This document shows, piece after piece, positions 3,733-60,546 of a stretch of 64,000 bases of DNA. Below the pieces are notes generated by a model. That model saw nothing but the letters and a program-made list of their open reading frames with translations. It had not been told where the DNA came from and searched no databases. The DNA is taken from NCBI RefSeq assembly GCF_000026545.1, contig NC_011601.1; one strand, given 5' to 3'. This stretch comes from Escherichia coli O127:H6 str. E2348/69. GTDB lineage: Bacteria > Pseudomonadota > Gammaproteobacteria > Enterobacterales > Enterobacteriaceae. Numbering within the stretch: the stretch's first letter is position 1; the number at the start of each line of letters is the position of its first letter. The translations under genes and the position numbers were made by a program.

Positions 3733-5019
3733 ATGAAACTCTACAATCTGAAAGATCACAATGAGCAGGTCAGCTTTGCGCAAGCCGTAACCCAGGGGTT
3801 GGGCAAAAATCAGGGGCTGTTTTTCCCGCACGACCTGCCGGAATTCAGCCTGACTGAAATTGATGAGATGCTGAAGCTGGATTTTGTCACCCGCAGTGCG
3901 AAGATCCTCTCGGCGTTTATTGGTGATGAAATCCCGCAGGAAATCCTGGAAGAGCGCGTACGCGCGGCGTTTGCCTTCCCGGCTCCGGTCGCCAATGTTG
4001 AAAGCGATGTCGGTTGTCTGGAGTTGTTTCACGGGCCAACGCTGGCATTTAAAGATTTCGGCGGTCGCTTTATGGCACAAATGCTGACCCATATTGCGGG
4101 CGATAAGCCAGTGACCATTCTGACCGCGACCTCCGGTGATACCGGAGCGGCAGTGGCTCATGCTTTCTACGGTTTGCCGAATGTGAAAGTGGTTATCCTC
4201 TATCCACGAGGCAAAATCAGTCCACTGCAAGAAAAACTGTTCTGTACATTGGGCGGCAATATTGAAACTGTTGCCATCGACGGCGATTTCGATGCCTGTC
4301 AGGCGCTGGTGAAGCAGGCGTTTGATGATGAAGAACTGAAAGTGGCGCTGGGGCTAAACTCAGCTAACTCGATTAACATCAGCCGTTTGCTGGCGCAGAT
4401 TTGCTACTACTTTGAAGCTGTTGCGCAGCTGCCGCAGGAAGCGCGCAACCAGCTGGTTGTCTCGGTGCCAAGCGGAAACTTCGGCGATTTGACGGCGGGT
4501 CTGCTGGCGAAGTCACTCGGTCTGCCGGTAAAACGTTTTATTGCTGCGACCAACGTGAACGATACCGTACCACGTTTCCTGCACGACGGTCAGTGGTCAC
4601 CCAAAGCGACTCAGGCGACGTTATCCAATGCGATGGATGTTAGCCAGCCAAACAACTGGCCGCGTGTGGAAGAGTTGTTCCGCCGCAAAATCTGGCAACT
4701 GAAAGAGCTGGGGTATGCAGCCGTGGATGATGAAACCACGCAACAGACAATGCGTGAGTTAAAAGAACTGGGCTATACCTCGGAGCCGCACGCTGCCGTA
4801 GCTTATCGTGCGCTGCGTGACCAGTTGAATCCAGGCGAATATGGCTTGTTCCTCGGCACCGCGCATCCGGCGAAATTTAAAGAGAGCGTGGAAGCGATTC
4901 TCGGTGAAACGTTGGATCTGCCAAAAGAGCTGGCAGAACGTGCTGATTTACCCTTGCTTTCGCATAACCTGCCCGCCGATTTTGCTGCGTTGCGTAAATT
5001 GATGATGAATCATCAGTAA
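3733..5019 (+). CDS. thrC: threonine synthase
   Basis: 428-aa ORF MKLYNLKDHNEQVSFAQAV, start abuts thrB stop. Confidence 0.95.
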   Translation: MKLYNLKDHNEQVSFAQAVTQGLGKNQGLFFPHDLPEFSLTEIDEMLKLDFVTRSAKILSAFIGDEIPQEILEERVRAAFAFPAPVANVESDVGCLELFHGPTLAFKDFGGRFMAQMLTHIAGDKPVTILTATSGDTGAAVAHAFYGLPNVKVVILYPRGKISPLQEKLFCTLGGNIETVAIDGDFDACQALVKQAFDDEELKVALGLNSANSINISRLLAQICYYFEAVAQLPQEARNQLVVSVPSGNFGDLTAGLLAKSLGLPVKRFIAATNVNDTVPRFLHDGQWSPKATQATLSNAMDVSQPNNWPRVEELFRRKIWQLKELGYAAVDDETTQQTMRELKELGYTSEPHAAVAYRALRDQLNPGEYGLFLGTAHPAKFKESVEAILGETLDLPKELAERADLPLLSHNLPADFAALRKLMMNHQ

Positions 5020-9807: not shown

Positions 9808-11357
9808 CTGTCTCTTATACACAAATCCCCACCCGGGGATTTGTGATGTCTGTCAGTCTGCTTTAGGGGGACTCTTTCCATCCGGTAGTTTCCTTCCTCC
9901 CCGGCAGCGATTTTTTGAACTTTTTCCTCACCCGTTGATCTTCTCTTATATTTCATTTTCTTCGGGTCTGTTATGGTACTTTCTGATTGTTATTCATGGG
10001 CTAACGAGCAGTTTGGACATGCCCGTCTCGGTGATCCGCGTCGTACACGACGCCTTGTGTCACTGGCCTCTTCTCTCGCTCAGCATGCAGGTCTTTCTAT
10101 TGTGAAATCATCCCAGTCCACTGCTCAGGTTGAAGGTGCGTACCGCCTGATACGTAACCCGTCTGTGTCCCCGCAAGCCATTGCCGAAGCCGGATTTACC
10201 GCCACTGTAAGGGCATGTGAGGCTCATCCGCTGCTCCTCGCGCTGGAAGACACCACCACCATTAACTTCAGTCACAGTACGGCATCTGATGACCTGGGGA
10301 ATACCACCACTAACCCGAAGACGCGCGGGCTGCTGGCTCACTCTGTCCTGATGTACGCCCCCGACAGCGCCCTGCCAGTCGGTCTTATCGAACAGCAGCG
10401 CTGGAGTCGTGCCACGGACACCTACGGTGTTAAGCACCAGCGAAAAGAACGTCCCTATGAAGAAAAAGAAAGTTACCGCTGGCAGCAGGCTTCGGAGCGC
10501 ATGGCCGAATGGCTGGGGGAGATACAGAAACGGGTAATCACTGTCTGTGACCGGGAAGCGGATATCTGGCATTACCTGCATTATAAAGTCAGCCACGGGC
10601 AGCGCTTCGTGGTGCGTGCAGCACAGAATCGCCGGCTGGAAGAAGCACCCGGCAAGCTCTTCGAACTGCCGGAAGTCCTGGCAACCGCGGGAAGCCACAC
10701 GCTGAATGTGATGCAAAAAGGCGGGCGGGCAGCCCGCCAGGCCCGGATGTTCATCAGTTACAGCGAAGTCAGCATAAAAAATCCCGACAACAGCGGCCAG
10801 GCGCTCCCGCTCACGTATGTCTGTTGCCGGGAGCAGGCAGAGGACGGCGCCTGCTGGCATCTGCTGACGTCAGAAAAAGTGGCGAGTGCCGCCGATGCGC
10901 GACGTATCGTCAGCCATTACGAGCGACGCTGGCTGATAGAGGAATACCACAAGGCGTGGAAAAGTGGTGGTACATGTGTGGAATCGCTGCGAATGCAGAC
11001 CCGGGATAACCTCGAGCGCATGGTGGTTATCAAGGCGTTTATCGCGGTGCGGGTGCTGGGCCTGCGGCAGGGCGGTATCAGTGAAGAAACACAAAATGAC
11101 AGCTGTGAGAAAATACTGACGCCGACAGAGTGGAAACTGCTGTGGGTTAAGCTGGAAGGAAAACCGCTTCCGTCACAGATGCCGACACTGAAATGGGCCT
11201 GTCTGAAACTGGCGAAACTGGGGCGATGGCATGACAGCAAACGCACCGGTCGCCCCGGTTGGGTAGTCATGTGGGATGGCTGGTTCAGACTTCAGGATAT
11301 GGTTGAGGGTTACCTGGTGATGAAGTCTCTTGATCAGGAGATCTGATCAAGAGACAG
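9808..11357 (+). mobile_element. IS50/Tn5-like insertion sequence (IS4 family), apparently complete
   Basis: left terminus ctgtctcttatacacaaat (17/19 to Tn5 OE, 17/19 to ME); right terminus agatctgatcaagagacag is the exact reverse complement of the Tn5 inside end CTGTCTCTTGATCAGATCT; single transposase ORF reads from the OE-like end and stops inside the IE-like end as in IS50; flanked by direct repeat ccgagcgg. Confidence 0.85.
9973..11346 (+). CDS. IS4-family (IS50-group) DDE transposase
   Basis: 457-aa ORF with Tn5 Tnp hallmarks: LGDPRRT near N-terminus, ALEDTT and VCDREADI (catalytic Asp positions), RWLIEEYHKAWKSG (YREK motif with catalytic Glu); overall only moderately similar to canonical Tn5 Tnp as recalled. 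Confidence 0.85.
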   Translation: MVLSDCYSWANEQFGHARLGDPRRTRRLVSLASSLAQHAGLSIVKSSQSTAQVEGAYRLIRNPSVSPQAIAEAGFTATVRACEAHPLLLALEDTTTINFSHSTASDDLGNTTTNPKTRGLLAHSVLMYAPDSALPVGLIEQQRWSRATDTYGVKHQRKERPYEEKESYRWQQASERMAEWLGEIQKRVITVCDREADIWHYLHYKVSHGQRFVVRAAQNRRLEEAPGKLFELPEVLATAGSHTLNVMQKGGRAARQARMFISYSEVSIKNPDNSGQALPLTYVCCREQAEDGACWHLLTSEKVASAADARRIVSHYERRWLIEEYHKAWKSGGTCVESLRMQTRDNLERMVVIKAFIAVRVLGLRQGGISEETQNDSCEKILTPTEWKLLWVKLEGKPLPSQMPTLKWACLKLAKLGRWHDSKRTGRPGWVVMWDGWFRLQDMVEGYLVMKSLDQEI

Positions 11358-13611: not shown

Positions 13612-15528
13612 ATGGGTAAAATAATTGGTATCGACCTGGGTACTACCAACTCTTGTGTAGCGATTATGGATGGCACCACTCCTCGTGTACTGGAGAACGC
13701 CGAAGGCGATCGCACCACGCCTTCTATCATTGCCTATACCCAGGATGGTGAAACTCTGGTTGGTCAGCCGGCTAAACGTCAGGCAGTGACGAACCCGCAA
13801 AACACCCTGTTTGCGATTAAACGCCTGATTGGCCGCCGCTTCCAGGACGAAGAAGTACAGCGTGATGTTTCCATCATGCCGTTCAAAATTATTGCTGCTG
13901 ATAACGGCGACGCATGGGTCGAAGTTAAAGGCCAGAAAATGGCACCGCCGCAGATCTCTGCTGAAGTGCTGAAAAAAATGAAGAAAACCGCTGAAGATTA
14001 CCTGGGTGAACCGGTAACTGAAGCTGTTATCACCGTACCGGCATACTTTAACGATGCTCAGCGTCAGGCAACCAAAGACGCAGGCCGTATCGCTGGTCTG
14101 GAAGTAAAACGTATCATCAACGAACCGACCGCAGCTGCGCTGGCTTACGGTCTGGACAAAGGTACTGGCAACCGTACTATCGCGGTTTATGACCTGGGTG
14201 GTGGTACTTTCGATATTTCTATTATCGAAATCGACGAAGTTGACGGCGAAAAAACCTTCGAAGTTCTGGCTACCAACGGTGATACCCACCTGGGTGGTGA
14301 AGACTTCGACAGCCGTCTGATCAACTACCTGGTTGAAGAATTCAAGAAAGATCAGGGCATTGACTTGCGCAACGATCCGCTGGCAATGCAGCGCCTGAAA
14401 GAAGCGGCAGAAAAAGCGAAAATCGAACTGTCTTCCGCTCAGCAGACCGACGTTAACCTGCCGTACATCACTGCAGACGCGACCGGTCCGAAACACATGA
14501 ACATCAAAGTGACTCGTGCGAAACTGGAAAGCCTGGTTGAAGATCTGGTAAACCGTTCCATTGAGCCGCTGAAAGTTGCACTGCAGGACGCTGGCCTGTC
14601 CGTATCTGATATCGACGACGTTATCCTCGTTGGTGGTCAGACTCGTATGCCAATGGTTCAGAAGAAAGTTGCTGAATTCTTTGGTAAAGAGCCGCGTAAA
14701 GACGTTAACCCGGACGAAGCTGTAGCAATCGGTGCTGCTGTTCAGGGTGGTGTTCTGACTGGTGACGTGAAAGACGTACTGCTGCTGGACGTTACCCCGC
14801 TGTCTCTGGGTATCGAAACCATGGGCGGTGTGATGACGACGCTGATCGCGAAAAACACCACTATCCCGACCAAGCACAGCCAGGTGTTCTCTACCGCTGA
14901 AGACAACCAGTCTGCGGTAACCATCCACGTGCTGCAGGGTGAACGTAAACGTGCGGCTGATAACAAATCTCTGGGTCAGTTCAACCTGGATGGTATCAAC
15001 CCGGCACCGCGCGGCATGCCGCAGATCGAAGTTACCTTCGATATCGATGCTGACGGTATCCTGCACGTTTCCGCGAAAGATAAAAACAGCGGTAAAGAGC
15101 AGAAGATCACCATCAAGGCTTCTTCTGGTCTGAACGAAGATGAAATCCAGAAAATGGTACGCGACGCAGAAGCTAACGCCGAAGCTGACCGTAAGTTTGA
15201 AGAGCTGGTACAGACTCGCAACCAGGGTGACCATCTGCTGCACAGCACCCGTAAGCAGGTTGAAGAAGCAGGCGACAAACTGCCGGCTGACGACAAAACT
15301 GCTATCGAGTCTGCGCTGACTGCACTGGAAACTGCTCTGAAAGGTGAAGACAAAGCCGCTATCGAAGCGAAAATGCAGGAACTGGCACAGGTTTCCCAGA
15401 AACTGATGGAAATCGCCCAGCAGCAACATGCCCAGCAGCAGACTGCCGGTGCTGATGCTTCTGCAAACAACGCGAAAGATGACGATGTTGTCGACGCTGA
15501 ATTTGAAGAAGTCAAAGACAAAAAATAA
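13612..15528 (+). CDS. dnaK: chaperone Hsp70
   Basis: 638-aa [24 protein letters not shown]. Confidence 0.97.
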
Positions 15529-15616
15529 TCGCCCTATAAACGGGTAATTATACTGACACGGGCGAAGGGGAATTTCCTCTCCGCCCGTGCATTCATCTAG
15601 GGGCAAATCAAAAAAG

Positions 15617-16747
15617 ATGGCTAAGCAAGATTATTACGAGATTTTAGGCGTTTCCAAAACAGCGGAAGAGCGTGAAATCAAAAAGGCCTACAAACGCCTG
15701 GCCATGAAATACCACCCGGACCGTAACCAGGGTGACAAAGAGGCCGAGGCGAAATTTAAAGAGATCAAGGAGGCTTATGAAGTTTTGACCGACTCGCAAA
15801 AACGTGCGGCATACGATCAGTATGGTCATGCTGCGTTTGAGCAAGGCGGCATGGGCGGCGGCGGTTTTGGCGGCGGCGCAGACTTCAGCGATATTTTTGG
15901 TGACGTTTTCGGCGATATTTTTGGCGGCGGACGTGGTCGTCAACGTGCGGCGCGCGGTGCTGATTTACGCTATAACATGGAGCTCACCCTCGAAGAAGCT
16001 GTACGTGGCGTGACCAAAGAGATCCGCATTCCGACTCTGGAAGAGTGTGACGTTTGCCACGGTAGCGGTGCAAAACCAGGTACACAGCCGCAGACCTGTC
16101 CGACCTGTCATGGTTCTGGTCAGGTGCAGATGCGCCAGGGTTTCTTTGCCGTGCAGCAGACCTGTCCTCACTGTCAGGGCCGCGGTACGCTGATCAAAGA
16201 TCCGTGCAACAAATGTCATGGTCATGGTCGTGTTGAGCGCAGCAAAACGCTGTCCGTTAAAATCCCGGCAGGGGTGGACACTGGAGACCGCATCCGTCTT
16301 GCGGGCGAAGGTGAAGCGGGTGAACACGGCGCACCGGCAGGCGATCTGTACGTTCAGGTTCAGGTTAAACAGCACCCGATTTTCGAGCGTGAAGGCAACA
16401 ACCTGTATTGCGAAGTCCCGATCAACTTCGCTATGGCGGCGCTGGGTGGTGAAATCGAAGTACCGACCCTTGATGGTCGCGTCAAACTGAAAGTGCCTGG
16501 CGAAACCCAGACCGGTAAGCTGTTCCGTATGCGCGGTAAAGGCGTCAAGTCTGTCCGCGGTGGCGCACAGGGTGATTTGCTATGCCGCGTTGTTGTCGAA
16601 ACACCGGTAGGTTTGAACGAGAAGCAGAAACAGCTGCTGCAAGAGCTGCAAGAAAGCTTTGGTGGCCCAACCGGCGAGCACAACAGCCCGCGTTCAAAGA
16701 GCTTCTTTGATGGCGTGAAGAAGTTTTTTGACGACCTGACTCGCTAA
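15617..16747 (+). CDS. dnaJ: chaperone Hsp40
   Basis: 376-aa [40 protein letters not shown] with Gly-rich linker and four CxxCxGxG zinc-finger repeats; ATG at 15617 (track start 15587 is an extension). Confidence 0.97.
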
Positions 16748-17107: not shown

Positions 17108-17618
17108 CTATCTGCCGTTCAGCCAATGCCTGAGACAGACAGCCTCAAGCACCCGCTGCTATTATACTGCGCTTTTAATTCACTTCTGTTTTATCAATTC
17201 TTTTTCTGAAGACGCCTCGCATTTTTGCGGAATAATATTTCAATACATCAATTTATTTAACTTAAATATATCCAGGGATTCACAAAAAAAGGTGTTTTCC
17301 TCTATCAAAAGTGAATGGCTAAAGGAAATTAATTATTAAAGGTTACTGTAATACTATAGAGAGATAAAGAAATACGTTCAGCAGCCAATGCTAAGTTCAT
17401 CATGAAAAATGCCTATAAATCAAAGGGTGATGTTTAAAACAGACACATTTTCTGAAACACGATATCCCTCCGCCCGTTCGCAAAAGTAATCTGCGATCTT
17501 CATCACGCTTCGATAGTCATCTTTAAATATACTGGCCTGGTCATTCTTAATAAAAATGAATTGTCTGGTGTATTAATTCCTATGGAATCATAAAAACAAT
17601 GAATGGAGAACATATTAT

Positions 17619-18380
17619 ATGTCTGCCAAAAGACGACTTCTTATTGCGTGTACCCTGATAACAGCTATCTATCATTTTCCTGCATATTCTTCATTAGAAT
17701 ATAAAGGAACCTTTGGTTCAATAAATGCGGGTTATGCAGACTGGAATAGTGGATTTGTAAACACTCACCGTGGTGAAGTATGGAAAGTGACTGCGGATTT
17801 TGGGGTAAATTTTAAAGAAGCAGAATTTTACTCATTTTATGAAAGTAATGTACTCAATCATGCTGTAGCAGGGAGAAATCATACGGTTTCAGCAATGACG
17901 CATGTCAGACTCTTTGACTCTGATATGACATTCTTTGGCAAAATTTATGGCCAATGGGATAACTCATGGGGTGACGATCTGGACATGTTTTATGGATTCG
18001 GTTACCTCGGCTGGAACGGCGAGTGGGGCTTTTTTAAACCGTATATTGGATTGCATAATCAATCTGGTGACTACGTATCAGCTAAATATGGTCAAACGAA
18101 TGGTTGGAATGGTTATGTTGTTGGCTGGACAGCAGTATTACCATTTACGTTATTTGACGAAAAATTTGTTTTATCTAACTGGAATGAAATAGAACTGGAC
18201 AGGAACGATGCTTACACGGAGCAGCAATTTGGCCGGAACGGGTTAAATGGCGGTTTAACTATTGCCTGGAAGTTCTATCCTCGCTGGAAAGCCAGTGTGA
18301 CGTGGCGTTATTTCGATAATAAGCTGGGCTACGATGGCTTTGGCGATCAAATGATTTATATGCTTGGTTATGATTTCTAA
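17619..18380 (+). CDS. small outer-membrane beta-barrel channel, Tsx/OmpK-like (KdgM-like is an alternative)
   Basis: 253-aa ORF with N-terminal signal-like region, Trp/Tyr/Gly-rich alternating segments (WNGEWGFF, GWNGYVVGW) and C-terminal ...MLGYDF ending in Phe; low-GC gene preceded by ggagaa RBS. Confidence 0.65.
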   Translation: MSAKRRLLIACTLITAIYHFPAYSSLEYKGTFGSINAGYADWNSGFVNTHRGEVWKVTADFGVNFKEAEFYSFYESNVLNHAVAGRNHTVSAMTHVRLFDSDMTFFGKIYGQWDNSWGDDLDMFYGFGYLGWNGEWGFFKPYIGLHNQSGDYVSAKYGQTNGWNGYVVGWTAVLPFTLFDEKFVLSNWNEIELDRNDAYTEQQFGRNGLNGGLTIAWKFYPRWKASVTWRYFDNKLGYDGFGDQMIYMLGYDF

Positions 18381-18400
18381 TTTTTTATCAGGGAATAATT

Positions 18401-19894
18401 ATGCAGAAAACGTTAATGGCCAGTTTGATCGGCCTTACAGTTTGCACAGGGAATGCTTTTAGTCCTGCCTTAGCCGCAGAGGCTAAACAACCTAATTTAG
18501 TCATTATTATGGCGGATGATTTAGGTTATGGCGATTTAGCAACATATGGTCATCAGATCGTTAAAACACCTAATATCGACAGGCTTGCCCAGGAAGGGGT
18601 CAAATTTACTGACTACTATGCCCCCGCTCCTTTAAGTTCACCTTCACGCGCAGGGCTATTAACCGGCCGGATGCCATTTCGTACTGGAATTCGCTCATGG
18701 ATTCCTTCAGGCAAAGATGTTGCCTTAGGGCGTAACGAACTCACGATTGCTAATCTACTCAAAGCGCAAGGGTACGACACGGCAATGATGGGTAAGCTGC
18801 ATCTGAATGCAGGCGGCGATCGCACCGATCAGCCACAAGCACAAGATATGGGCTTTGATTACTCACTGGTTAATACGGCGGGCTTTGTTACCGACGCCAC
18901 GCTGGATAACGCTAAAGAACGCCCGCGTTATGGCATGGTTTACCCGACAGGCTGGCTACGTAACGGGCAACCCACTCCACGAGCCGATAAAATGAGCGGT
19001 GAGTATGTCAGTTCGGAAGTCGTCAACTGGCTGGATAACAAAAAGGACAGCAAGCCTTTCTTCCTCTATGTTGCTTTTACCGAAGTGCATAGCCCCCTGG
19101 CTTCGCCCAAAAAATACCTCGATATGTACTCACAATATATGAGCGCGTATCAGAAGCAGCATCCTGATTTATTTTATGGCGACTGGGCAGACAAACCCTG
19201 GCGTGGTGTGGGGGAATATTATGCCAATATCAGCTATCTGGATGCACAGGTTGGAAAAGTGCTGGATAAAATCAAAGCGATGGGTGAAGAAGATAACACC
19301 ATCGTTATTTTTACCAGTGATAACGGTCCGGTAACGCGTGAAGCGCGCAAAGTGTATGAGCTGAATTTGGCAGGGGAAACGGATGGATTACGCGGTCGCA
19401 AGGATAACCTTTGGGAAGGCGGAATTCGTGTTCCAGCCATTATTAAATATGGTAAACATCTACCACAGGGAATGGTTTCAGATACACCCGTTTATGGTCT
19501 GGACTGGATGCCTACTTTAGCGAAAATGATGAACTTCAAATTACCTACAGACCGTACTTTCGATGGTGAATCGCTGGTTCCTGTTCTTGAGCAAAAAGCA
19601 TTGAAACGCGAAAAGCCATTAATTTTCGGGATTGATATGCCATTCCAGGATGATCCAACCGATGAATGGGCGATCCGTGATGGTGACTGGAAGATGATTA
19701 TCGATCGCAATAATAAACCGAAATATCTCTACAATCTGAAATCTGATCGTTATGAAACACTTAATCTGATCGGTAAAAAACCAGATATTGAAAAACAGAT
19801 GTATGGTAAGTTTTTAAAATATAAAACTGATATTGATAATGATTCTCTAATGAAAGCCAGAGGTGATAAACCAGAAGCGGTGACCTGGGGCTAA
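18401..19894 (+). CDS. periplasmic sulfatase, Ser-type
   Basis: 497-aa ORF; signal peptide ending ALAAEA; sulfatase signature PLSSPSRAGLLTG with Ser at the formylglycine position; conserved N-terminal IIMADDLGYGD metal-binding region. Confidence 0.85.
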   Translation: MQKTLMASLIGLTVCTGNAFSPALAAEAKQPNLVIIMADDLGYGDLATYGHQIVKTPNIDRLAQEGVKFTDYYAPAPLSSPSRAGLLTGRMPFRTGIRSWIPSGKDVALGRNELTIANLLKAQGYDTAMMGKLHLNAGGDRTDQPQAQDMGFDYSLVNTAGFVTDATLDNAKERPRYGMVYPTGWLRNGQPTPRADKMSGEYVSSEVVNWLDNKKDSKPFFLYVAFTEVHSPLASPKKYLDMYSQYMSAYQKQHPDLFYGDWADKPWRGVGEYYANISYLDAQVGKVLDKIKAMGEEDNTIVIFTSDNGPVTREARKVYELNLAGETDGLRGRKDNLWEGGIRVPAIIKYGKHLPQGMVSDTPVYGLDWMPTLAKMMNFKLPTDRTFDGESLVPVLEQKALKREKPLIFGIDMPFQDDPTDEWAIRDGDWKMIIDRNNKPKYLYNLKSDRYETLNLIGKKPDIEKQMYGKFLKYKTDIDNDSLMKARGDKPEAVTWG

Positions 19895-19942
19895 CCTGAT
19901 AATCATAATAAATGTAATGTATGCCATTTAGGGCTATGCCCG

Positions 19943-19979
19943 CCTGATTCAGTGCTACGCATTGAATCAGGTTCTTTTC
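19943..19979 (+). terminator. putative rho-independent terminator after the sulfatase gene
   Basis: 9-bp stem cctgattca / tgaatcagg with 11-nt loop, followed by ttcttttcg. Confidence 0.45.
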
Positions 19980-20016
19980 GCGTTGAACAATATCAAGATA
20001 CGGCTATTCGCAGGGA

Positions 20017-21282
20017 GTGGATATGTTTACCAACGTAAATGTTGATTGTTGCAAAACACCAGGATGTAAAAACCTGGGGTTGCTGAATAGCCAGGATTAT
20101 GTCGCACAGGGTAAAAATATTTTATGCCGTGAATGTGGTTACTTGTTTCCAGTGATATCTGAACAGTCGCTTAATATTTATCGTAATATTGTGAATCACT
20201 CCTGGAGAGGTTTGATTTGCCAATGTTCAACTTGCGGAGGCACGTCCCTCAAAAAATATGGATATTCTGCACAAGGCCAGAGAAGAATGTATTGCCATCA
20301 TTGTGAGAAAACATTTATCACTCTGGAACATGTAATTACCACACCACGAGGAGCCCAGTTAGCATTGATGATTGAGCAAGGGGAGGCACTTGCGGATATC
20401 AGAAAGTCATTACTTCTTAACAGCACTGGACTTAGCCGTGAACTGTTAAAATTAGCGCGTGAAGCAAACTATAAAGAAAGTCGACAGTGTTTCCCAGCTT
20501 CTGATATTACCCTGAGTACCCGCGCTTTTCGCGTCAAGTATAATGGTAGCAATAACTCTCTTTATGCTCTTGTTACCGCAGAAGAACAAAGCGGCAGGGT
20601 GGTTGCCATCTCAACCAATTACTCCTCATCTGCCGTAGAGCAACATTATCAATACACATCGAACTATGAAGAGCGTATGTCTCCAGGGACGCTGGCACAT
20701 CATGTCCAGCGCAAAGAGTTACTTACTATGCGGCGGGATACCTTGTTTGATATTGATTACGGCCCGGCAGTTTTACATCAAAACGATCCGGGAATGTTGG
20801 TAAAACCGGTTCTTCCGGCATATCGCCATTTTGAACTGGTCAGAATACTGACCGATGAGCATTCCAACAACGTTCAGCATTACCTTGATCACGAATGCTT
20901 TATATTGGGCGGCTGCCTGATGGCTAATTTGCAGCATATTCATCAAGGTCGCTGCCATATTTCCTTTGTCAAAGAGCGCGGTGTGGCACCCGCCACCATT
21001 GATTTTCCACCGCGATTATTCCTTAGTGGTGGGGTACGAAATAATGTCTGGCGTGCATTTTCTAACCGCAATTATTCAATGGCTGTATGCAATCTCACTG
21101 GCAGTAAGAAAGTCCGCGAGATGCGGCATGCAACATTGAACAGTGCGACGCGTTTTATCCACTTTGTGGAGAACCATCCTTTCCTTATATCATTGAACCG
21201 AATGTCTCCTGCGAATGTCGTTTCTACATTAGATATCCTCAAACATCTGTGGAATAAAAAACTAGAGCATGGAACAATTTAA
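20017..21282 (+). CDS. cysteine-rich hypothetical protein with N-terminal zinc-ribbon-like region
   Basis: 421-aa ORF; first ~100 aa carry CCx4C, CxxC, CxCxxC and YCHHCEKTF motifs resembling transposase/InsA-type zinc ribbons, followed by a possible HTH; no CxxxCxxC radical-SAM motif; AGGGAG RBS favours the ATG at 20023 over the GTG at 20017. Confidence 0.6.
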   Translation: MDMFTNVNVDCCKTPGCKNLGLLNSQDYVAQGKNILCRECGYLFPVISEQSLNIYRNIVNHSWRGLICQCSTCGGTSLKKYGYSAQGQRRMYCHHCEKTFITLEHVITTPRGAQLALMIEQGEALADIRKSLLLNSTGLSRELLKLAREANYKESRQCFPASDITLSTRAFRVKYNGSNNSLYALVTAEEQSGRVVAISTNYSSSAVEQHYQYTSNYEERMSPGTLAHHVQRKELLTMRRDTLFDIDYGPAVLHQNDPGMLVKPVLPAYRHFELVRILTDEHSNNVQHYLDHECFILGGCLMANLQHIHQGRCHISFVKERGVAPATIDFPPRLFLSGGVRNNVWRAFSNRNYSMAVCNLTGSKKVREMRHATLNSATRFIHFVENHPFLISLNRMSPANVVSTLDILKHLWNKKLEHGTI

Positions 21283-21516
21283 TTATTACTTTTCCGAATA
21301 ATTTCTTCAGTAATCTTGACATTAGACTATGATTAATGGGGTTTAAGGTCATCAGCCGCCGCTTTCGGGCATCAAAAACTCATCTCTCGCTGATGGCGCA
21401 ATTCTTTTAATAGGTCGTAAAAAGCGAGCTATTCCTACACTATAATCTGATTTTAACGATGATTCGTGCGGGGTAAAATCGTGAAAACGATCTATTCACC
21501 TGAAGAGAAATAAAAA

Positions 21517-22683
21517 GTGAAACATCTGCATCGATTCTTTAGCAGTGATGCCTCGGGAGGCATTATTCTCATTATTGCCGCTGTATTAGCGATGATTATG
21601 GCCAACAGCGGTGCAACCAGTGGATGGTATCACGACTTTCTTGAGACGCCGGTTCAGCTCCGGGTTGGGACACTTGAGATCAACAAGAACATGCTGCTAT
21701 GGATCAATGACGCTCTGATGGCGGTATTTTTCCTGTTGGTTGGTCTGGAAGTTAAACGCGAGCTGATGCAAGGTTCGCTGGCCAGTCTGCGCCAGGCGGC
21801 ATTTCCTGTTATTGCCGCAATCGGCGGGATGATTGTCCCGGCATTGCTCTATCTGGCTTTTAACTATGCCGATCCTATCACTCGCGAAGGCTGGGCAATC
21901 CCGGCGGCGACTGACATTGCCTTTGCACTTGGTGTGTTGGCGCTGTTGGGAAGTCGTGTTCCGTTAGCGCTGAAGATCTTTTTGATGGCTCTGGCTATTA
22001 TCGACGATCTTGGGGCCATCATTATCATCGCATTGTTCTACACTAATGACTTATCGATGGCCTCTCTTGGCGTCGCGGCTGTAGCAATTGCGGTACTCGC
22101 GGTATTGAATCTGTGTGGTGTACGCCGCACGGGCGTTTATATTCTGGTTGGCGTGGTGCTGTGGACAGCGGTGTTGAAATCAGGTGTCCATGCAACGCTG
22201 GCTGGCGTCATTGTCGGCTTCTTTATTCCGTTAAAAGAGAAGCATGGGCGTTCTCCAGCGAAGCGACTGGAGCATGTGTTGCACCCGTGGGTGGCGTATC
22301 TGATTTTGCCGCTGTTTGCATTTGCTAATGCTGGCGTTTCACTGCAAGGTGTCACGCTGGAAGGTTTGACCTCCATTCTGCCATTAGGGATCATCGCTGG
22401 TTTGCTGATTGGCAAGCCACTGGGTATTAGTCTGTTCTGCTGGTTGGCGCTGCGTTTGAAACTGGCGCATCTGCCAGAGGGAACGACTTACCAGCAAATT
22501 ATGGCGGTTGGTATCCTGTGCGGTATCGGTTTTACTATGTCTATCTTTATTGCCAGCCTGGCATTTGGTAGCGTAGATCCAGAACTGATTAACTGGGCAA
22601 AATTAGGCATCCTTGTCGGTTCAATTTCTTCGGCGGTAATTGGATATAGCTGGTTACGCGTTCGTTTACGTCCATCAGTTTGA
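21517..22683 (+). CDS. nhaA: Na+/H+ antiporter
   Basis: 388-aa [25 protein letters not shown] start. Confidence 0.95.
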
Positions 22684-22742
22684 CAGGACGATGTACTGGG
22701 GAGCCATAAACGGCTCCCTTTTCATTGTTATCAGGGAGAGAA

Positions 22743-23648
22743 ATGAGCATGTCTCATATCAATTACAACCACTTGTATTACTTCTGGCATGTCTACAAAG
22801 AAGGTTCTGTGGTTGGCGCAGCGGAGGCGCTTTATTTAACACCACAAACCATTACCGGGCAGATCCGGGCGCTGGAAGAGCGCCTGCAAGGGAAACTATT
22901 TAAGCGTAAAGGACGTGGTCTGGAACCCAGCGAACTGGGGGAACTGGTCTATCGCTATGCCGATAAAATGTTCACCTTAAGCCAGGAAATGCTGGATATC
23001 GTCAACTATCGCAAAGAGTCCAACTTATTGTTTGATGTTGGTGTGGCAGATGCACTTTCCAAACGTCTGGTCAGCAGTGTTCTGGATGCCGCAGTTGTGG
23101 AAGACGAGCAGATCCATCTACGCTGTTTCGAATCGACGCACGAGATGCTTTTAGAGCAGTTGAGTCAGCATAAACTGGATATGATCATCTCTGACTGTCC
23201 GATCGATTCCACTCAGCAGGAAGGGCTGTTTTCCATGAAAATTGGCGAGTGTGGTATCAGTTTCTGGTGCACTAACCCACTACCAGAAAAGCCGTTTCCT
23301 GCCTGTCTTGAAGAGCGTCGTTTACTTATTCCGGGGCGTCGCTCAATGTTGGGGCGTAAACTATTAAACTGGTTTAACTCCCAGGGCTTGAATGTCGAAA
23401 TTTTGGGTGAGTTTGATGATGCTGCGTTGATGAAAGCCTTTGGGGCGACGCATAACGCTATTTTCGTTGCACCTTCGCTTTACGCTAATGATTTCTATAA
23501 CGATGACTCGGTTGTGGAGATAGGCCGTGTTGAGAACGTGATGGAAGAGTACCACGCGATTTTTGCCGAAAGGATGATTCAGCACCCTGCAGTACAGCGT
23601 ATCTGCAATACAGACTATTCTGCGCTGTTTACTCCAGCTTCAAAATAA
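22743..23648 (+). CDS. nhaR: LysR-family regulator of nhaA
   Basis: 301-aa [51 protein letters not shown] (HTH); track start 22725 is an extension. Confidence 0.9.
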
Positions 23649-23692
23649 ACATTTGTACTTTGCAGGCCGAATTTTGGCCTGCAGATGGATAT

Positions 23693-23720
23693 AAAAAAAC
23701 CCGCCAGAGCGGGTTTTTTT
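23693..23720. terminator. bidirectional rho-independent terminator (nhaR / rpsT)
   Basis: aaaaaaa-cccgc-cagagcggg-ttttttt: hairpin flanked by A-run and T-run between convergent genes. Confidence 0.6.
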
Positions 23721-23743
23721 ACAAAGCTGACAACAACAGGCAA

Positions 23744-24028
<285 letters not shown>

Positions 24029-24109
24029 CTATATGGACAATTCAAAGGCCGAGGAATATGCCCTTTTAGCCTTCTTTTGTCAATGGATTTGTGCAAATAA
24101 GCGCCGTTA

Positions 24110-24328
24110 ATGTGCCGGCACTCGTTACGTAGTGATGGCGCAGGATTCTACCAGCTTGCGGGGTGTGAATACAGCTTTTCCGCGAGAAAAATTGCAGCAG
24201 GCGGTCAGTTTCTTCCCATGATTTGCGCCATAGCAATGAAAAGCCACTTCTTTCTGATTTCGGTACTCAATCGCCGGTTAACCTTGACCGCTGTACAAGG
24301 TATACTCGGACGATTTTCACTGTTTTGA
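24110..24328 (+). CDS. yaaY: small uncharacterised ORF at the yaaY position
   Basis: 72-aa ORF between rpsT and ribF in the position of K-12 yaaY; coding status uncertain. Confidence 0.35.
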   Translation: MCRHSLRSDGAGFYQLAGCEYSFSARKIAAGGQFLPMICAIAMKSHFFLISVLNRRLTLTAVQGILGRFSLF

Positions 24329-24335
24329 GCCAGAC

Positions 24336-25277
24336 ATGAAGCTGATACGCGGCATACATAATCTCAGCCAGGCCCCGCAAGAAGGGTGTGTGCTGACTAT
24401 TGGTAATTTCGACGGCGTGCATCGCGGTCATCGCGCGCTGTTACAGGGCTTGCAGGAAGAAGGGCGCAAGCGCAACTTACCGGTGATGGTGATGCTTTTT
24501 GAACCTCAACCACTGGAACTGTTTGCTACTGATAAAGCCCCGGCACGGCTGACCCGGCTGCGGGAAAAACTGCGTTATCTTGCAGAGTGTGGCGTTGATT
24601 ACGTGCTGTGCGTGCGTTTTGACAGGCGTTTTGCGGCGTTAACCGCGCAAAACTTCATCAGTGATCTTCTGGTGAGGCACTTGCGGGTAAAATTTCTTGC
24701 CGTAGGTGACGATTTCCGCTTTGGCGCTGGTCGTGAAGGCGATTTCTTGTTATTACAGAAAGCGGGCATGGAATACGGCTTCGATATCACCAGCACGCAA
24801 ACTTTTTGCGAAGGTGGCGTGCGTATCAGCAGCACCGCCGTGCGTCAGGCGCTGGCGGATGACAATCTGGCTCTGGCAGAAAGTTTACTGGGGCACCCGT
24901 TTGCTATCTCCGGGCGTGTAGTCCACGGTGATGAATTAGGGCGCACTATAGGTTTCCCGACGGCGAATGTACCGCTACGCCGTCAGGTTTCCCCGGTGAA
25001 AGGGGTGTATGCGGTAGAAGTGTTGGGCCTTGGCGAAAAGCCGTTACCCGGCGTTGCAAACATCGGAACACGCCCAACGGTTGCCGGTATTCGCCAGCAA
25101 CTGGAAGTGCATTTGTTAGATGTTGCAATGGACCTTTATGGTCGCCATATACAAGTAGTGCTGCGTAAAAAAATACGCAATGAGCAGCGATTTGCATCGC
25201 TGGACGAACTGAAAGCGCAGATTGCGCGTGATGAATTAACCGCCCGCGAATTTTTTGGGCTAACAAAACCGGCTTAA
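24336..25277 (+). CDS. ribF: riboflavin kinase / FAD synthetase
   Basis: 313-aa ORF MKLIRGIHNLSQAPQEGCVLTIGNFDGVHRGH. Confidence 0.95.
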   Translation: MKLIRGIHNLSQAPQEGCVLTIGNFDGVHRGHRALLQGLQEEGRKRNLPVMVMLFEPQPLELFATDKAPARLTRLREKLRYLAECGVDYVLCVRFDRRFAALTAQNFISDLLVRHLRVKFLAVGDDFRFGAGREGDFLLLQKAGMEYGFDITSTQTFCEGGVRISSTAVRQALADDNLALAESLLGHPFAISGRVVHGDELGRTIGFPTANVPLRRQVSPVKGVYAVEVLGLGEKPLPGVANIGTRPTVAGIRQQLEVHLLDVAMDLYGRHIQVVLRKKIRNEQRFASLDELKAQIARDELTAREFFGLTKPA

Positions 25278-50121: not shown

Positions 50122-50644
50122 ATGATTCTTATAATTTATGCGCATCCATATCCGCATCATTCCCATGCGAATAAACGGATGCTTGAACAGGCAAGGACGC
50201 TGGAAGGCGTCGAAATTCGCTCTCTTTATCAACTCTATCCTGACTTCAATATCGACATTGCCGCCGAACAGGAGGCGCTGTCTCGTGCCGATCTGATCGT
50301 CTGGCAGCACCCGATGCAGTGGTACAGCATTCCTCCGCTCCTCAAACTTTGGATCGATAAAGTTTTCTCGCACGGATGGGCTTACGGTCACGGCGGCACG
50401 GCGCTGCACGGCAAACATTTGCTGTGGGCGGTGACGACCGGCGGCGGGGAAAGCCATTTTGAGATTGGTGCGCATCCGGGGTTTGATGTGCTGTCGCAGC
50501 CGCTACAGGCGACGGCAATCTACTGCGGGCTGAACTGGCTGCCACCGTTTGCCATGCACTGCACCTTTATTTGTGACGACGAAACCCTCGAAGGGCAGGC
50601 GCGGCACTATAAGCAACGTCTGCTGGAATGGCAGGAGGCACATC

Positions 50645-53178: not shown

Positions 53179-53263
53179 TTTTGTATATTAGAATTCCGGC
53201 ATCACTGATACGTGCAGATATCCGTGTATACTAGACGTATAAATTGTACAGGAGCACGAGATC

Positions 53264-53497
53264 ATGACTGCAAAACGTACCACACAAAGTGTGACCGTCA
53301 CCGTCGACCGTGAGTTAGTCAATCGCGCTCGTGATGCAGGCTTAAATATGAGCGCCACCCTTACGGTTGCGCTCAATGCTGAACTTAAAAAACATGCAGC
53401 AACACGTTGGCGTGAAGAGAACGCAGAAGCTATCGCTGCGTTAAATCAATTGGCTGATGAAACCGGATGTTTCTCTGATGAGTACCGGAGCTTCTAG
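53264..53497 (+). CDS. ccdA: type II antitoxin CcdA (chromosomal ccd, O157-type)
   Basis: 77-aa ORF MTAKRTTQSVTVTVDRELVNRARDAGLNMSATLTV...RWREENAEAI...CFSDEYRSF, same pattern as F-plasmid CcdA; lies in the folA-apaH intergenic region. Confidence 0.85.
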   Translation: MTAKRTTQSVTVTVDRELVNRARDAGLNMSATLTVALNAELKKHAATRWREENAEAIAALNQLADETGCFSDEYRSF

Positions 53498-53499
53498 CG

Positions 53500-53814
53500 A
53501 TGCAATTTACGGTATACCGCAGTCGCGGCAGGAACGCCGCGTTTCCCTTTGTTATTGATGTTACCAGCGACATTATTGGTGAGATTAATCGCCGTATCGT
53601 TATTCCATTAACACCTATTGAACGATTTAGCCGTATTCGCCCACCAGAACGGCTTAACCCAATCCTTTTACTGGTAGACGGCAAAGAATATGTGCTCATG
53701 ACGCATGAGACTGCAACTGTTCCAGTTAACGCGCTGGGAACGAAATTTTGCGATGCCAGCGCGCACCGAACGTTGATTAAAGGAGCATTAGATTTTATGC
53801 TCGACGGGATTTAA
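53500..53814 (+). CDS. ccdB: type II toxin CcdB (gyrase poison family)
   Basis: 104-aa [40 protein letters not shown]... ending ...FMLDGI, homologous to F-plasmid CcdB (MQFKVY...FWGI); starts 3 nt after ccdA stop. Confidence 0.85.
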
Positions 53815-54659
53815 GACGCTACCGCCTCTCCCTCACCCATATCTTTATGCCGATTCGACGGCTGGACAAAATACTGTTTATCTTCCCAGCGCAGGCAGGT
53901 TAATGTACCACCCCAGCAGCAGCCGGTATCCAGCGCGTAAATACCTTCCGGCGTACCTTTGCCTTCCAGCGATGCCCAGTGACCAAAGGCGATGTTGTAC
54001 TCTTCAGCGACGGGGCCAGGAATCGCAAACCATGGTTTCAGTGGGGCAGGGGCCTCTTCCGGCGATTCTTTGCTGTACATATCCAGTTGACCGTTCGGGA
54101 AGCAAAAACGCATACGGGTAAAGGCGTTGGTGATAAAACGCAGTCTTCCCAGCCCCCGCAATTCCGGCGACCAGTTATTTGGCATATCGCCGTACATGGC
54201 ATCAAGGAAGAAGGGATAGGAGTCACTCGACAGCACCGCTTCTACATCGCGCGCGCACTCTTTGGCTGTCTGCAGATCCCACTGCGGCGTGATCCCGGCG
54301 TGGGCCATCACTAACTTTTTCTCTTCGTCGATTTGCAGCAAAGGCTGGCGACGCAGCCAGTTAAGCAGCTCGTCGGCATCCGGCGCTTCCAGCAGCGGTG
54401 TCAGGCGATCTTTCGGTTTATTGCGGCTGATCCCGGCAAATACCGCCAGCAGATGCAGATCGTGATTACCCAGCACCAGACGTACGCTGTCGCCTAAGGA
54501 TTTCACATAGCGCAGAACATCCAGCGAACCCGGGCCGCGCGCGACCAGATCGCCCGTCAGCCAGAGGGTATCTTTCCCAGGGGTAAATTCTACTTTATGC
54601 AGCAATGCGATCAGTTCATCGTAACAACCATGAACGTCGCCAATAAGGTATGTCGCCAT
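53811..54659 (-). CDS. apaH: diadenosine tetraphosphatase
   Basis: 282-aa [23 protein letters not shown]. Confidence 0.95.
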
Positions 54660-58139: not shown

Positions 58140-58191
58140 ACTTTTTCCATTTCAATTAACCGCACTGCGGATTACGTGGTAAATCAACAAA

Positions 58192-60546
58192 TCACAAAGT
58201 GTTTTGATACGGCAGAATGTTCGAACGCAGCATCTCTTGCGTACCCAGACCGTAGTTGGAGCTCAGGCCGCGAAGTTCGATGTTAAAGCCGATTGCGTTG
58301 TCATATACCGCATGTTGTTTATCGTTATCCCAACCGTTCAGCTTCCGCTCGTAACCGACGCGAATCGCATAGCAGCAGGAGCTGTATTGCACACCTAACA
58401 TAGAGTCGGCTTGCTTGTTCGCATTGGTGTCGTAGTAGTAGGCCCCAACAATGGACCAACGATCGGCAATTGGCCAGCTGGCGACGGCACCTACCTGCGA
58501 AATACCATTCTTATATTGCTCAGCAGTGGAATAGTACTTAGGCAGCGTTGCCTGAATATATTCCGGGCTGGCGTAACGGTAATTCAGCTGTACCAGACGG
58601 TCTTCATCCCGACGGTATTCAATGCTGGAGTTACTGGTCGCTACGTTATCCAGACGTGTATCGTACTGAATCCCGCCACGCAATCCCCAACGATCAGAGA
58701 TGCGCCAGTAAGTATCGCCTGCCCATACCAGTGAGCCCGTTTTGTCGTCATTCTCCCATGTTATGTTGTCATCGCCAGTGCGAGACTCCGTGAAATAGTA
58801 GATTTGACCAACGGAAATATTAAAACGTTCAACGGCAGCATCATCATATATGCGAGATGTGACACCGGTCGTCACCTGGTTAGCGGAGGCAATACGGTCA
58901 AGACCGCCGTAAGTCCGGTCCCGGAACAGGCCGGAGTAGTCAGATTGCAGCAGCGACGAGTCGTAGTTATAGATTTTGCTCTGATCGCGATATGGCACAT
59001 ACAGATACTGCGCGCGTGGTTCCAGTGTCTGGGTATAGCCCGGCGCCAGCATTTCCATATCACGCTCGAAGACCATTCTACCGTCTACCTTGAACTGCGG
59101 CATTACACGGTTAGCGGACTCTGCCAGCCTGGTCGTGTTTCTGGAGTTATACCAGTCAAGATTGGTTTGCTGATAATGGGTTGCCAGCAACTTCGCTTCA
59201 GTATTGATGCTGCCCCAGTTATTAGAGAGCGGCAGATTGATGGTCGGTTCCAGGTGAACACGAGTCGCCTCTGGCATGTCATCTCTGGTGTTAACAAAGT
59301 GCACTGCCTGGCCGTAAATACGCGTATCGAAAGGACCGACATCGTTTTGATAGTAGTTAACGTCTAACTGCGGTTCTGCCGAGTAGCTACTGGTGTTCTG
59401 CTCGCTGAAGACCTGGAACTGCTTGGTTGAAACGGTGGCATTGAAGTTTTGCACCGCATAGCCAACGCTGAATTTTTGCGTTGCATAGCCGTCGGTACTG
59501 GAACCGTATTTGTTATCGAAGTCATTGAAGTAGCTAGGATCGCTGACTTTGGTGTAGTCGACGTTGAAACGCCACACCTGATCCATGACCCCGGAGTGTT
59601 TCCAGTAGAACAACCAACGACGTGAACTGTCATCGTTCGGGTGTTCATCTTTATAGACTTTATCTGAAGGCAGATAGTCCAGTTCCATCAAGCCAGCGCC
59701 CGCCTGGGAGAGGTAGCGGAATTCGTTCTCCCACATGATGTTGCCACGACGATGCATATAATGCGGCGTGATGGTGGCATCCATATTTGGCGCGATGTTC
59801 CAGTAATATGGCAGGTAGAACTCAAAGTAGTTGGTGGTGGTGTACTTGGCGTTCGGGATCAAGAAACCAGAGCGACGTTTGTCACCCACCGGCAACTGCA
59901 AATACGGGCTATAAAAGATCGGTACCGGACCCACCTTAAAGCGGGCGTTCCAGATCTCCGCAACTTGTTCTTCGCGGTCATGAATAATTTCGCTCCCCAC
60001 CACGCTCCAGGTGTCAGAACCCGGCAGACAGGAGGTAAAGCTACCGTTATCCAGAATGGTATAGCGGTTTTCGCCACGTTGTTTCATCAGGTCCGCTTTA
60101 CCGCGACCCTGGCGACCTACCATCTGGTAATCACCTTCCCAGACGTTGGTATCTTTGGTGTTCAGATTCGCCCAGCCTTTCGGCCCTTTGAGGATCACCT
60201 GGTTATCGTCGTAATGGACATTACCGAGCGCATCAACGGTACGCACCGGCTCCGGTTGTCCTGGTGCCTCTTTTTGATGGAGCTGCACTTCGTCGGCCTG
60301 CAGACGGCTGTTACCCTGCATGATATCCACGCTGCCAGTAAACACGGCGTCATCCGGGTAGTCCCCTTTCGCGTGGTCAGCATTGATAGTCACGGGTAAG
60401 TCATTGGTATCGCCCTGTACCAGAGGACGGTCATAGCTTGGCACGCCCAACATGCACTGTGAGGCGAGGTCGGCTGCCAGTCCCTGTTGACTATAAAGGG
60501 CGGTGGCAATCATGGTGGCCAGGAGAGTGGGGATACGTTTTTTCAT
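58192..60546 (-). CDS. lptD: LPS assembly outer-membrane protein
   Basis: 784-aa [28 protein letters not shown]-terminal ...LPYQNTL. Confidence 0.95.

Follow-up and report, generated by a model that had tools for sequence, protein, structure and literature searches.

The short nhaR-rpsT spacer of Escherichia coli E2348/69: most likely the empty allele of a cassette locus whose alleles are exchanged by recombination

Our comparisons make us fairly confident that the 95 bp separating nhaR from rpsT in the window (the whole 64-kb stretch of DNA that was analysed, from E. coli O127:H6 strain E2348/69) are the empty allele of a multi-allelic, recombination-exchanged cassette locus, and that this allele is most likely an old state native to non-ST131 B2. 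As a feature in its own right, the stretch is an ordinary spacer between convergent genes that carries a conserved, putative bidirectional terminator. A previous sequence-only reading had seen it as a site where K-12 carries an IS1 copy and the window does not. Its observations were accurate: the gap is exactly 95 bp (23649-23743) by open reading frames and RefSeq annotation alike, a BLAST search of K-12 IS1A against the whole 64-kb window gave no match, and K-12 MG1655 does carry IS1A (19796-20563, insA1/insB1) between the two genes, an arrangement also given in the literature (PMC12428005). What did not hold is the interpretation of the difference as presence or absence of IS1, since the K-12 interval is not the window's spacer plus IS1. 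That one K-12 IS copy is absent from a published non-K-12 genome is, in itself, already known, expected and without consequences.

The spacer and its two hairpins

The features discussed here are collected in Table 1. The junction region is 100% identical to RefSeq record NZ_LT827011.1 (E2348/69) at unchanged coordinates (23300-24100), which makes the window the first 64 kb of this genome. Both gene ends agree between the open reading frames of the window and the annotation of that record; nhaR closes with a TAA stop codon whose last base is 23648. At the protein level NhaR is 94.7% identical to its K-12 counterpart, and S20 is 100% identical in all E. coli strains compared. Folding of the whole 95-bp spacer gave z-scores of -5.4 to -6.0 and predicted two independent hairpins on either strand. 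The 'single bidirectional terminator' of the sequence-only reading is therefore half right: one putative bidirectional terminator (H2) is present, yet the strong hairpins are two in number rather than one.

Table 1. Features at the nhaR-rpsT junction, in positions of the window
Feature	Position	Strand	Basis and remarks
nhaR CDS	22743..23648	+	open reading frame and RefSeq annotation of the identical record; LysR-type activator of nhaA
rpsT (ribosomal protein S20)	23744..24007	-	open reading frame and annotation
Convergent intergenic spacer, 'empty' allele	23649..23743	none	95 bp
Divergent 'W-type' block	23075..23690	+	last 574 bp of nhaR and spacer bases 1-42; goes with the empty state
Hairpin H1	23659..23685	+	folding; 12-bp stem, core GCAGGCC/GGCCTGC, 3-nt loop; allele-specific
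Hairpin H2	23692..23721	none	folding; A7-CCCGCC-AGA-GCGGG-T7; putative bidirectional intrinsic terminator common to nhaAR and rpsT transcripts

H2 (dG -16.8 kcal/mol on the plus and -18.3 kcal/mol on the minus strand; z-scores -6.3 and -6.6) is a stable GC stem-loop that on either strand leads into a U tract; it lies just downstream of both convergent stops and is kept in relatives. This is the A tract/GC stem/T tract arrangement of known bidirectional Rho-independent terminators, which likewise sit between convergent stops and are conserved across genera; all that the window adds to this pattern is an allele-specific hairpin without a U tail between H2 and nhaR. Together with its flanks, H2 forms a module (CATAAAAAAACCCGC...GCGGGTTTTTT.ACAAAGC) conserved in at least 12 enterobacterial genera, including Citrobacter, Salmonella, Enterobacter, Klebsiella, Raoultella and Kluyvera as well as Leclercia, Buttiauxella, Shimwellia, Pluralibacter and Intestinirhabdus. 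The ST131 strain EC958 has it at 100% identity, and in the shortest spacers (57-59 nt; Leclercia, Enterobacter, Citrobacter) it is the sole element. Judged by sequence and predicted fold, H2 would end transcription arriving from the nhaR side as well as from the rpsT side, and its K-12 homologue has been called a strong Rho-independent rpsT terminator (PMC12428005). H2 was found by folding; a simple consensus terminator scan made no call there, the likely reason being that its A and T tracts base-pair as part of the stem, so that no T tail is left free. An Rfam scan of 23000-24500 (E <= 1) yielded nothing above the gathering threshold; the best match, STnc370, scored 32 bits against a threshold of 54, and all matches were of the generic hairpin-plus-terminator kind.

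H1, the second hairpin (dG -18.7 kcal/mol, z-score -5.3), starts 11 nt past the nhaR stop, and a T tail, looked for on both strands, is absent from each. Queries containing H1 match one place per genome and there is no second copy in related loci, so H1 is not a REP- or BIME-type repeat. A hairpin homologous to H1 is found in the E. marmotae spacer, and in the other two E. coli alleles (see below) the corresponding place 3' of the nhaR stop is taken by unrelated GC-rich hairpins, so that every allele brings its own GC-rich hairpin directly 3' of nhaR. H1 probably shields the 3' end of the nhaR mRNA or has a part in setting it.

On the other side of rpsT, a strong sigma-70-like match (24055-24083, minus strand; TTGACA, 17-nt spacer, CATATT; 10 of 12 positions) is consistent with an rpsT promoter.

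The K-12 interval and a census of interval contents

In K-12 MG1655, nhaR (18715-19620) and rpsT (20815-21078) are 1,194 bp apart, a distance made up of 175 bp, IS1A (768 bp) and another 251 bp. The flanking genes and their convergent orientation (b0020-b0023) are those of the window, and the 53 bp adjoining rpsT are homologous (96% identity over a block beginning at 23691). Towards its 3' end nhaR, in contrast, is just 79-80% identical, and K-12's 426 non-IS bases show no homology to the 95-bp spacer except for their last ~53 bp, the rpsT terminator. IS1A does lie between nhaR and rpsT in K-12 and is absent from the window, as a simple insertion polymorphism would have it, with the window as pre-insertion site and the strains differing by the 768-bp element alone. 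To our minds, however, such a scenario is ruled out by the non-homologous flanks, by the missing target duplication - a 9-bp repeat sought at the flanks of K-12 IS1A (GTAGTAATTGCT / TACCTCAATGTG) gave no sequence common to both - and by where these flanks map in O157:H7 Sakai. The left one equals the Sakai locus at 4069-4464 (100%) and the right one the locus at 10971-11307 (98.8%); they are 6,506 bp apart, inside an island that consists of a fimbrial operon and espX1, and K-12 IS1A therefore replaces 6,506 bp of that island. RefSeq, too, annotates 'fimbrial family protein' pseudogene fragments around the K-12-type IS1A.

Hence, where the window has 95 bp, K-12 has a fimbrial-gene remnant (the 175 bp) and an espX1-rpsT intergenic remnant (the 251 bp) on either side of the element: the K-12 interval is an IS1-truncated fimbrial/espX1 island, not an IS1 inserted into the 95-bp spacer. 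In the mechanism we propose, IS1A would sit in a different allele (chaperone-usher fimbrial operon plus espX1) from which 6.5 kb were removed. Conversely, the window contains no 768-bp element with terminal inverted repeats and insA/insB, its spacer does not correspond to the occupied K-12 site minus the element with one copy of an 8-9 bp duplication, and IS1 end scars, sought in the spacer, are not present; there is no sign that IS1 ever inserted in the window's empty allele. K-12 IS1A is, in other words, no neutral marker in a spacer but flags the loss of a fimbrial/espX1 island.

To see the K-12 and window arrangements in context, we classified the interval in 5,426 complete E. coli genomes. 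The empty state, a contiguous short junction (95 bp as in the window), occurs in 556 of them; 640 carry genes for a GH31 glycoside hydrolase and an MFS transporter, and the majority (4,222/5,426) have the fimbrial operon plus espX1 or remnants thereof. Together these three states account for 5,418 of 5,425 genomes. The fimbrial state was counted by the left junction of the island with a 611-bp probe, at least 80% of which is present in 3,643 of the 4,222 fimbrial-junction genomes; the K-12 IS1A form makes up 511 of the 4,222. About three quarters of E. coli are thus in the fimbrial/espX1 island state. Differing gene content between the same conserved flanks, in three E. coli states, marks the interval as an integration or recombination hotspot with alternative cassettes, and a literature search for nhaR/rpsT in combination with fimbrial, EspX1, chaperone-usher or hotspot found no paper on the locus.

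The Sakai island (ECs_0019-ECs_0025) occupies exactly the interval of the window, from the nhaR stop to the rpsT terminator, but fills it with 6,932 bp of cargo where the window has none: a fimbrial adhesin pseudogene, usher, chaperone and major subunit genes (ECs_0019-0024) and the type III effector gene espX1 (ECs_0025), linked to a K-12-type nhaR 3' allele. The island is intact in IAI39, decayed in ST130 and IS1-truncated in K-12. A third allele is the cassette of GH31 glycoside hydrolase and MFS transporter, found in the ST131 strains EC958 and SE15 and in SMS-3-5 (this strain and IAI39 we take to belong to phylogroup F). It shares the interval and the right boundary (the terminator) with the window, and in ST131 the B2 backbone to either side shares 99-100% identity with the window; what differs is a cargo of 3,886 bp (EC958) and a K-12-type nhaR 3' end. 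The GH31-MFS copies of ST131 and SMS-3-5 are mutually only 84-90% identical, and the cassette is also present in Escherichia sp. E1V33, Citrobacter werkmanii, C. youngae and Klebsiella spallanzanii. E2348/69 (which we take to be phylogroup B2), CFT073 and UTI89 are all empty; the CFT073 spacer is identical to that of the window and the UTI89 gap is 95 bp as well. Outside E. coli, a gap of 54-215 bp is the rule: most of the sampled Enterobacteriaceae species representatives for which both genes could be located show it, while E. albertii and the divergent 'E. coli' SCPM-O-B-8794 hold fimbrial/espX1 remnants with a K-12-type nhaR end.

A fourth content was seen in Escherichia sp. MOD1-EC7003 (locus L019, 5366-10251), where at least 4.3 kb match neither known cassette and the nhaR 3' end belongs to a third allele class, ~79% identical to the window type and to the K-12 type.

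The divergent nhaR 3' allele and the origin of the empty state

The empty state comes with its own version of nhaR. In the alignment with K-12, nhaA-nhaR is 89% identical as against 96-98% for the flanking blocks, and the differences cluster towards the 3' end of nhaR. Compared to EC958, a fellow B2 strain, there are no mismatches in 22743-23074, 116 in 23075-23648 and one in 23691-24400, so that the divergent block has sharp edges, one at 23075 and one at 23690/23691. When 5,424 genomes are compared over 23075-23690, their identities to the window fall into a strictly bimodal pattern: 99% or more in 556, ~80-81% in 4,852, 90.9% in a single genome and lower in 15; the diversity of the empty allele within E. 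coli is at most 1%. Despite synonymous divergence at dS 2.0-2.2, dN is about 0.05 (dN/dS about 0.025), so both nhaR alleles are under strong purifying selection and both classes encode working proteins.

Mosaic breakpoints in the flanks of the interval are seen in ST131 and in one further strain. In EC958 the nhaR 3' end is 98-99.3% identical to non-B2 strains, whereas its nhaA and nhaR 5' end reach 92-94%; this argues that ST131 is the recombinant and that the empty allele is native to B2. In strain Z1323CEC0015, the one genome at 90.9%, nhaR is K-12-type up to about 23460, then follows the window at 100% through H1 - that is, over the last ~190 bp of nhaR plus H1 - and continues into a K-12-type rpsT terminator, with breakpoints near 23460 and 23700. 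The mosaic shows directly that homologous recombination transfers the empty allele. In our model, alleles would pass between lineages in this way, by crossovers that fall within nhaR and at the rpsT terminator; this would be why the empty allele brings with it a 3' nhaR sequence that shares ~80% identity with the other class.

As for where this sequence comes from, identities of the block to E. albertii and other Escherichia lineages, and likewise to Citrobacter and Salmonella, are ~77-82%. A donor search against 80 GTDB species representatives, in which the E. coli, E. fergusonii and E. marmotae representatives are not among the matches listed, gave ~81% (Citrobacter) as the best listed match outside E. 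coli, with SCPM-O-B-8794 reaching 82%. Using the C-terminal 199 aa of NhaR, a protein search placed the next cluster at 91-92% identity, the 90% clustering being too coarse to name a donor; the cluster holding the window's NhaR includes one E. marmotae sequence. The ~77-82% identities had first suggested an orphan import from outside the genus, a notion that was downgraded after comparison with EC958 and with E. marmotae. In the only E. marmotae genome compared (L093), nhaR and rpsT are 102 bp apart with the same terminator, and the spacer includes a homologous H1 (TTTGCAGGC...GGCCTGC). The 3' part of its nhaR shares 90% identity with the window (~80-82% with K-12 and EC958), and its flanks share 91-96% with the window. 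Collinear with E. marmotae at about between-species divergence, the empty haplotype is an old one in Escherichia, and since its layout is also the one usual among enterobacteria, the empty allele most likely represents the old state.

Could the empty allele have been imported into B2 nonetheless? This would require an island-bearing ancestor (GH31-MFS or fimbrial/espX1) of the non-ST131 B2 strains, in which ~0.6 kb of empty-junction DNA from a marmotae-like or other non-coli Escherichia replaced the nhaR 3' part and the island by homologous recombination. Exactly such a transfer is seen in Z1323CEC0015, and import is in keeping with a sharp-edged block whose identity is ~80% both to every other E. 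coli and to E. albertii, with its bimodal identity and low diversity, and with the island remnants next to a K-12-type allele in E. albertii, which suggest that islands are old. It sits less well with the ST131 comparison, in which the nhaR 3' end but not the flanks is near-identical to non-B2 strains and the event falls on the ST131 side, or with the finding that the other three B2 lineages sampled are all empty. Moreover, E. marmotae is about equally divergent inside and outside the block, as vertical descent predicts, and no donor above 90% emerged among the listed matches of the 80 species representatives or in the protein database. On balance, we regard import as unlikely and retention of the empty allele in B2, rather than its import at the base, as probable. 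The low diversity by itself would fit retention in one clade and, equally, a single import at the base of the clade. As regards the direction of evolution, the island remnants in E. albertii and SCPM-O-B-8794 imply that the fimbrial/espX1 allele is old in the genus, too.

That the spacer is instead the scar of an illegitimate deletion, by which a K-12/Sakai-like or ST131-like ancestor spontaneously lost its island without foreign DNA, strikes us as highly improbable. Its shortness and the coincidence of the right edges of all three alleles at the terminator (23691) may be read that way, but a deletion can produce neither 116 substitutions in the last 574 bp of nhaR nor a new H1 common to E. 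marmotae. A more far-reaching view, unlikely as we see it, is that the 3' two-thirds of nhaR and the spacer form a long-lived trans-species polymorphism of at least three classes (dS about 2), each with its own cargo (none, GH31-MFS, fimbriae plus espX1). Balancing selection or repeated interspecies exchange would maintain it, and it may tie variants of the NhaR effector-binding domain to neighbouring genes.

With retention of an old, recombination-exchanged empty allele as our preferred reading, the locus offers a compact and well-delimited example of cassette exchange via flanking recombination. Such exchange can make a core gene like nhaR look 20% divergent or, under orthology thresholds, even 'absent'. 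A comparative study reported 'absence of nhaR' in environmental and animal Escherichia strains (PMC3466228); we speculate that this may be an orthology-threshold artefact of the ~80% allele classes and not a true loss.

Outside the 3' block, too, in nhaA and the 5' part of nhaR (21273-23074), B2 and non-B2 E. coli differ by 6-8%, compared to about 1.3-4.4% for dnaJ, ribF and ileS, and ompK is only 90% identical between UTI89 and EC958. All of the region from 17 to 24 kb is a patchwork of deeply diverged alleles.

Other differences from K-12 in the window

The sequence-only reading had combined the missing IS1 with two further absences, of IS186 near hokC and of a yabP/yabQ segment before rluA, and both were borne out when the window was aligned with K-12 1-75000. 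IS186A (K-12 15387-16731) has no BLAST match in the window, which at this site has an intact, uninterrupted dnaJ-terminator site; here the difference from K-12 is a clean insertion polymorphism, just as had been assumed. Also absent by alignment is the yabP/yabQ segment (K-12 58178-59686). As to the proposal of a non-K-12 lineage with a different IS set, 100% identity to E2348/69 and the lack of IS1 and IS186 agree with it, although IS content is not the defining difference, because the last 574 bp of nhaR are of a different, ~80%-identical allele class.

Between sokC and nhaA, a 4-kb block (17273-21272) encodes an OmpK-like porin, a sulfatase and a 421-aa hypothetical protein, and is absent from K-12 and Sakai. 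Its genes are also found upstream of nhaA in E. albertii, Escherichia sp. MOD1-EC7003 and phylogroup F strains, as well as in Salmonella arizonae, Citrobacter braakii, Klebsiella and Phytobacter, so the block is ancestral and was lost in K-12-like lineages rather than inserted in B2. In IAI39 and SMS-3-5, the third gene of the block is annotated with an IS1/IS1595 N-terminal zinc-binding domain. Further downstream, ~645 bp between folA and apaH (53188-53832) have no K-12 counterpart, the K-12 gap being 84 bp (50312-50395).

An IS50-like (IS4-family) element (9808-11357) lies between mog and satP, where K-12 has none, and presumably is the 'single IS50-like insertion' of the sequence-only reading. 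It contains a 457-aa transposase open reading frame (9973-11346) and its ends, CTGTCTCTTATACACAAAT (left) and CTGTCTCTTGATCAG (right, reverse complement), are close to the Tn5 end sequences. The left ~280 bp of the element (window 9871-10147) match K-12 59294-59575 (locus L003, yabQ-rluA) at 86% in inverted orientation, so that the K-12-only yabP/yabQ segment seems to hold a remnant of a related element.
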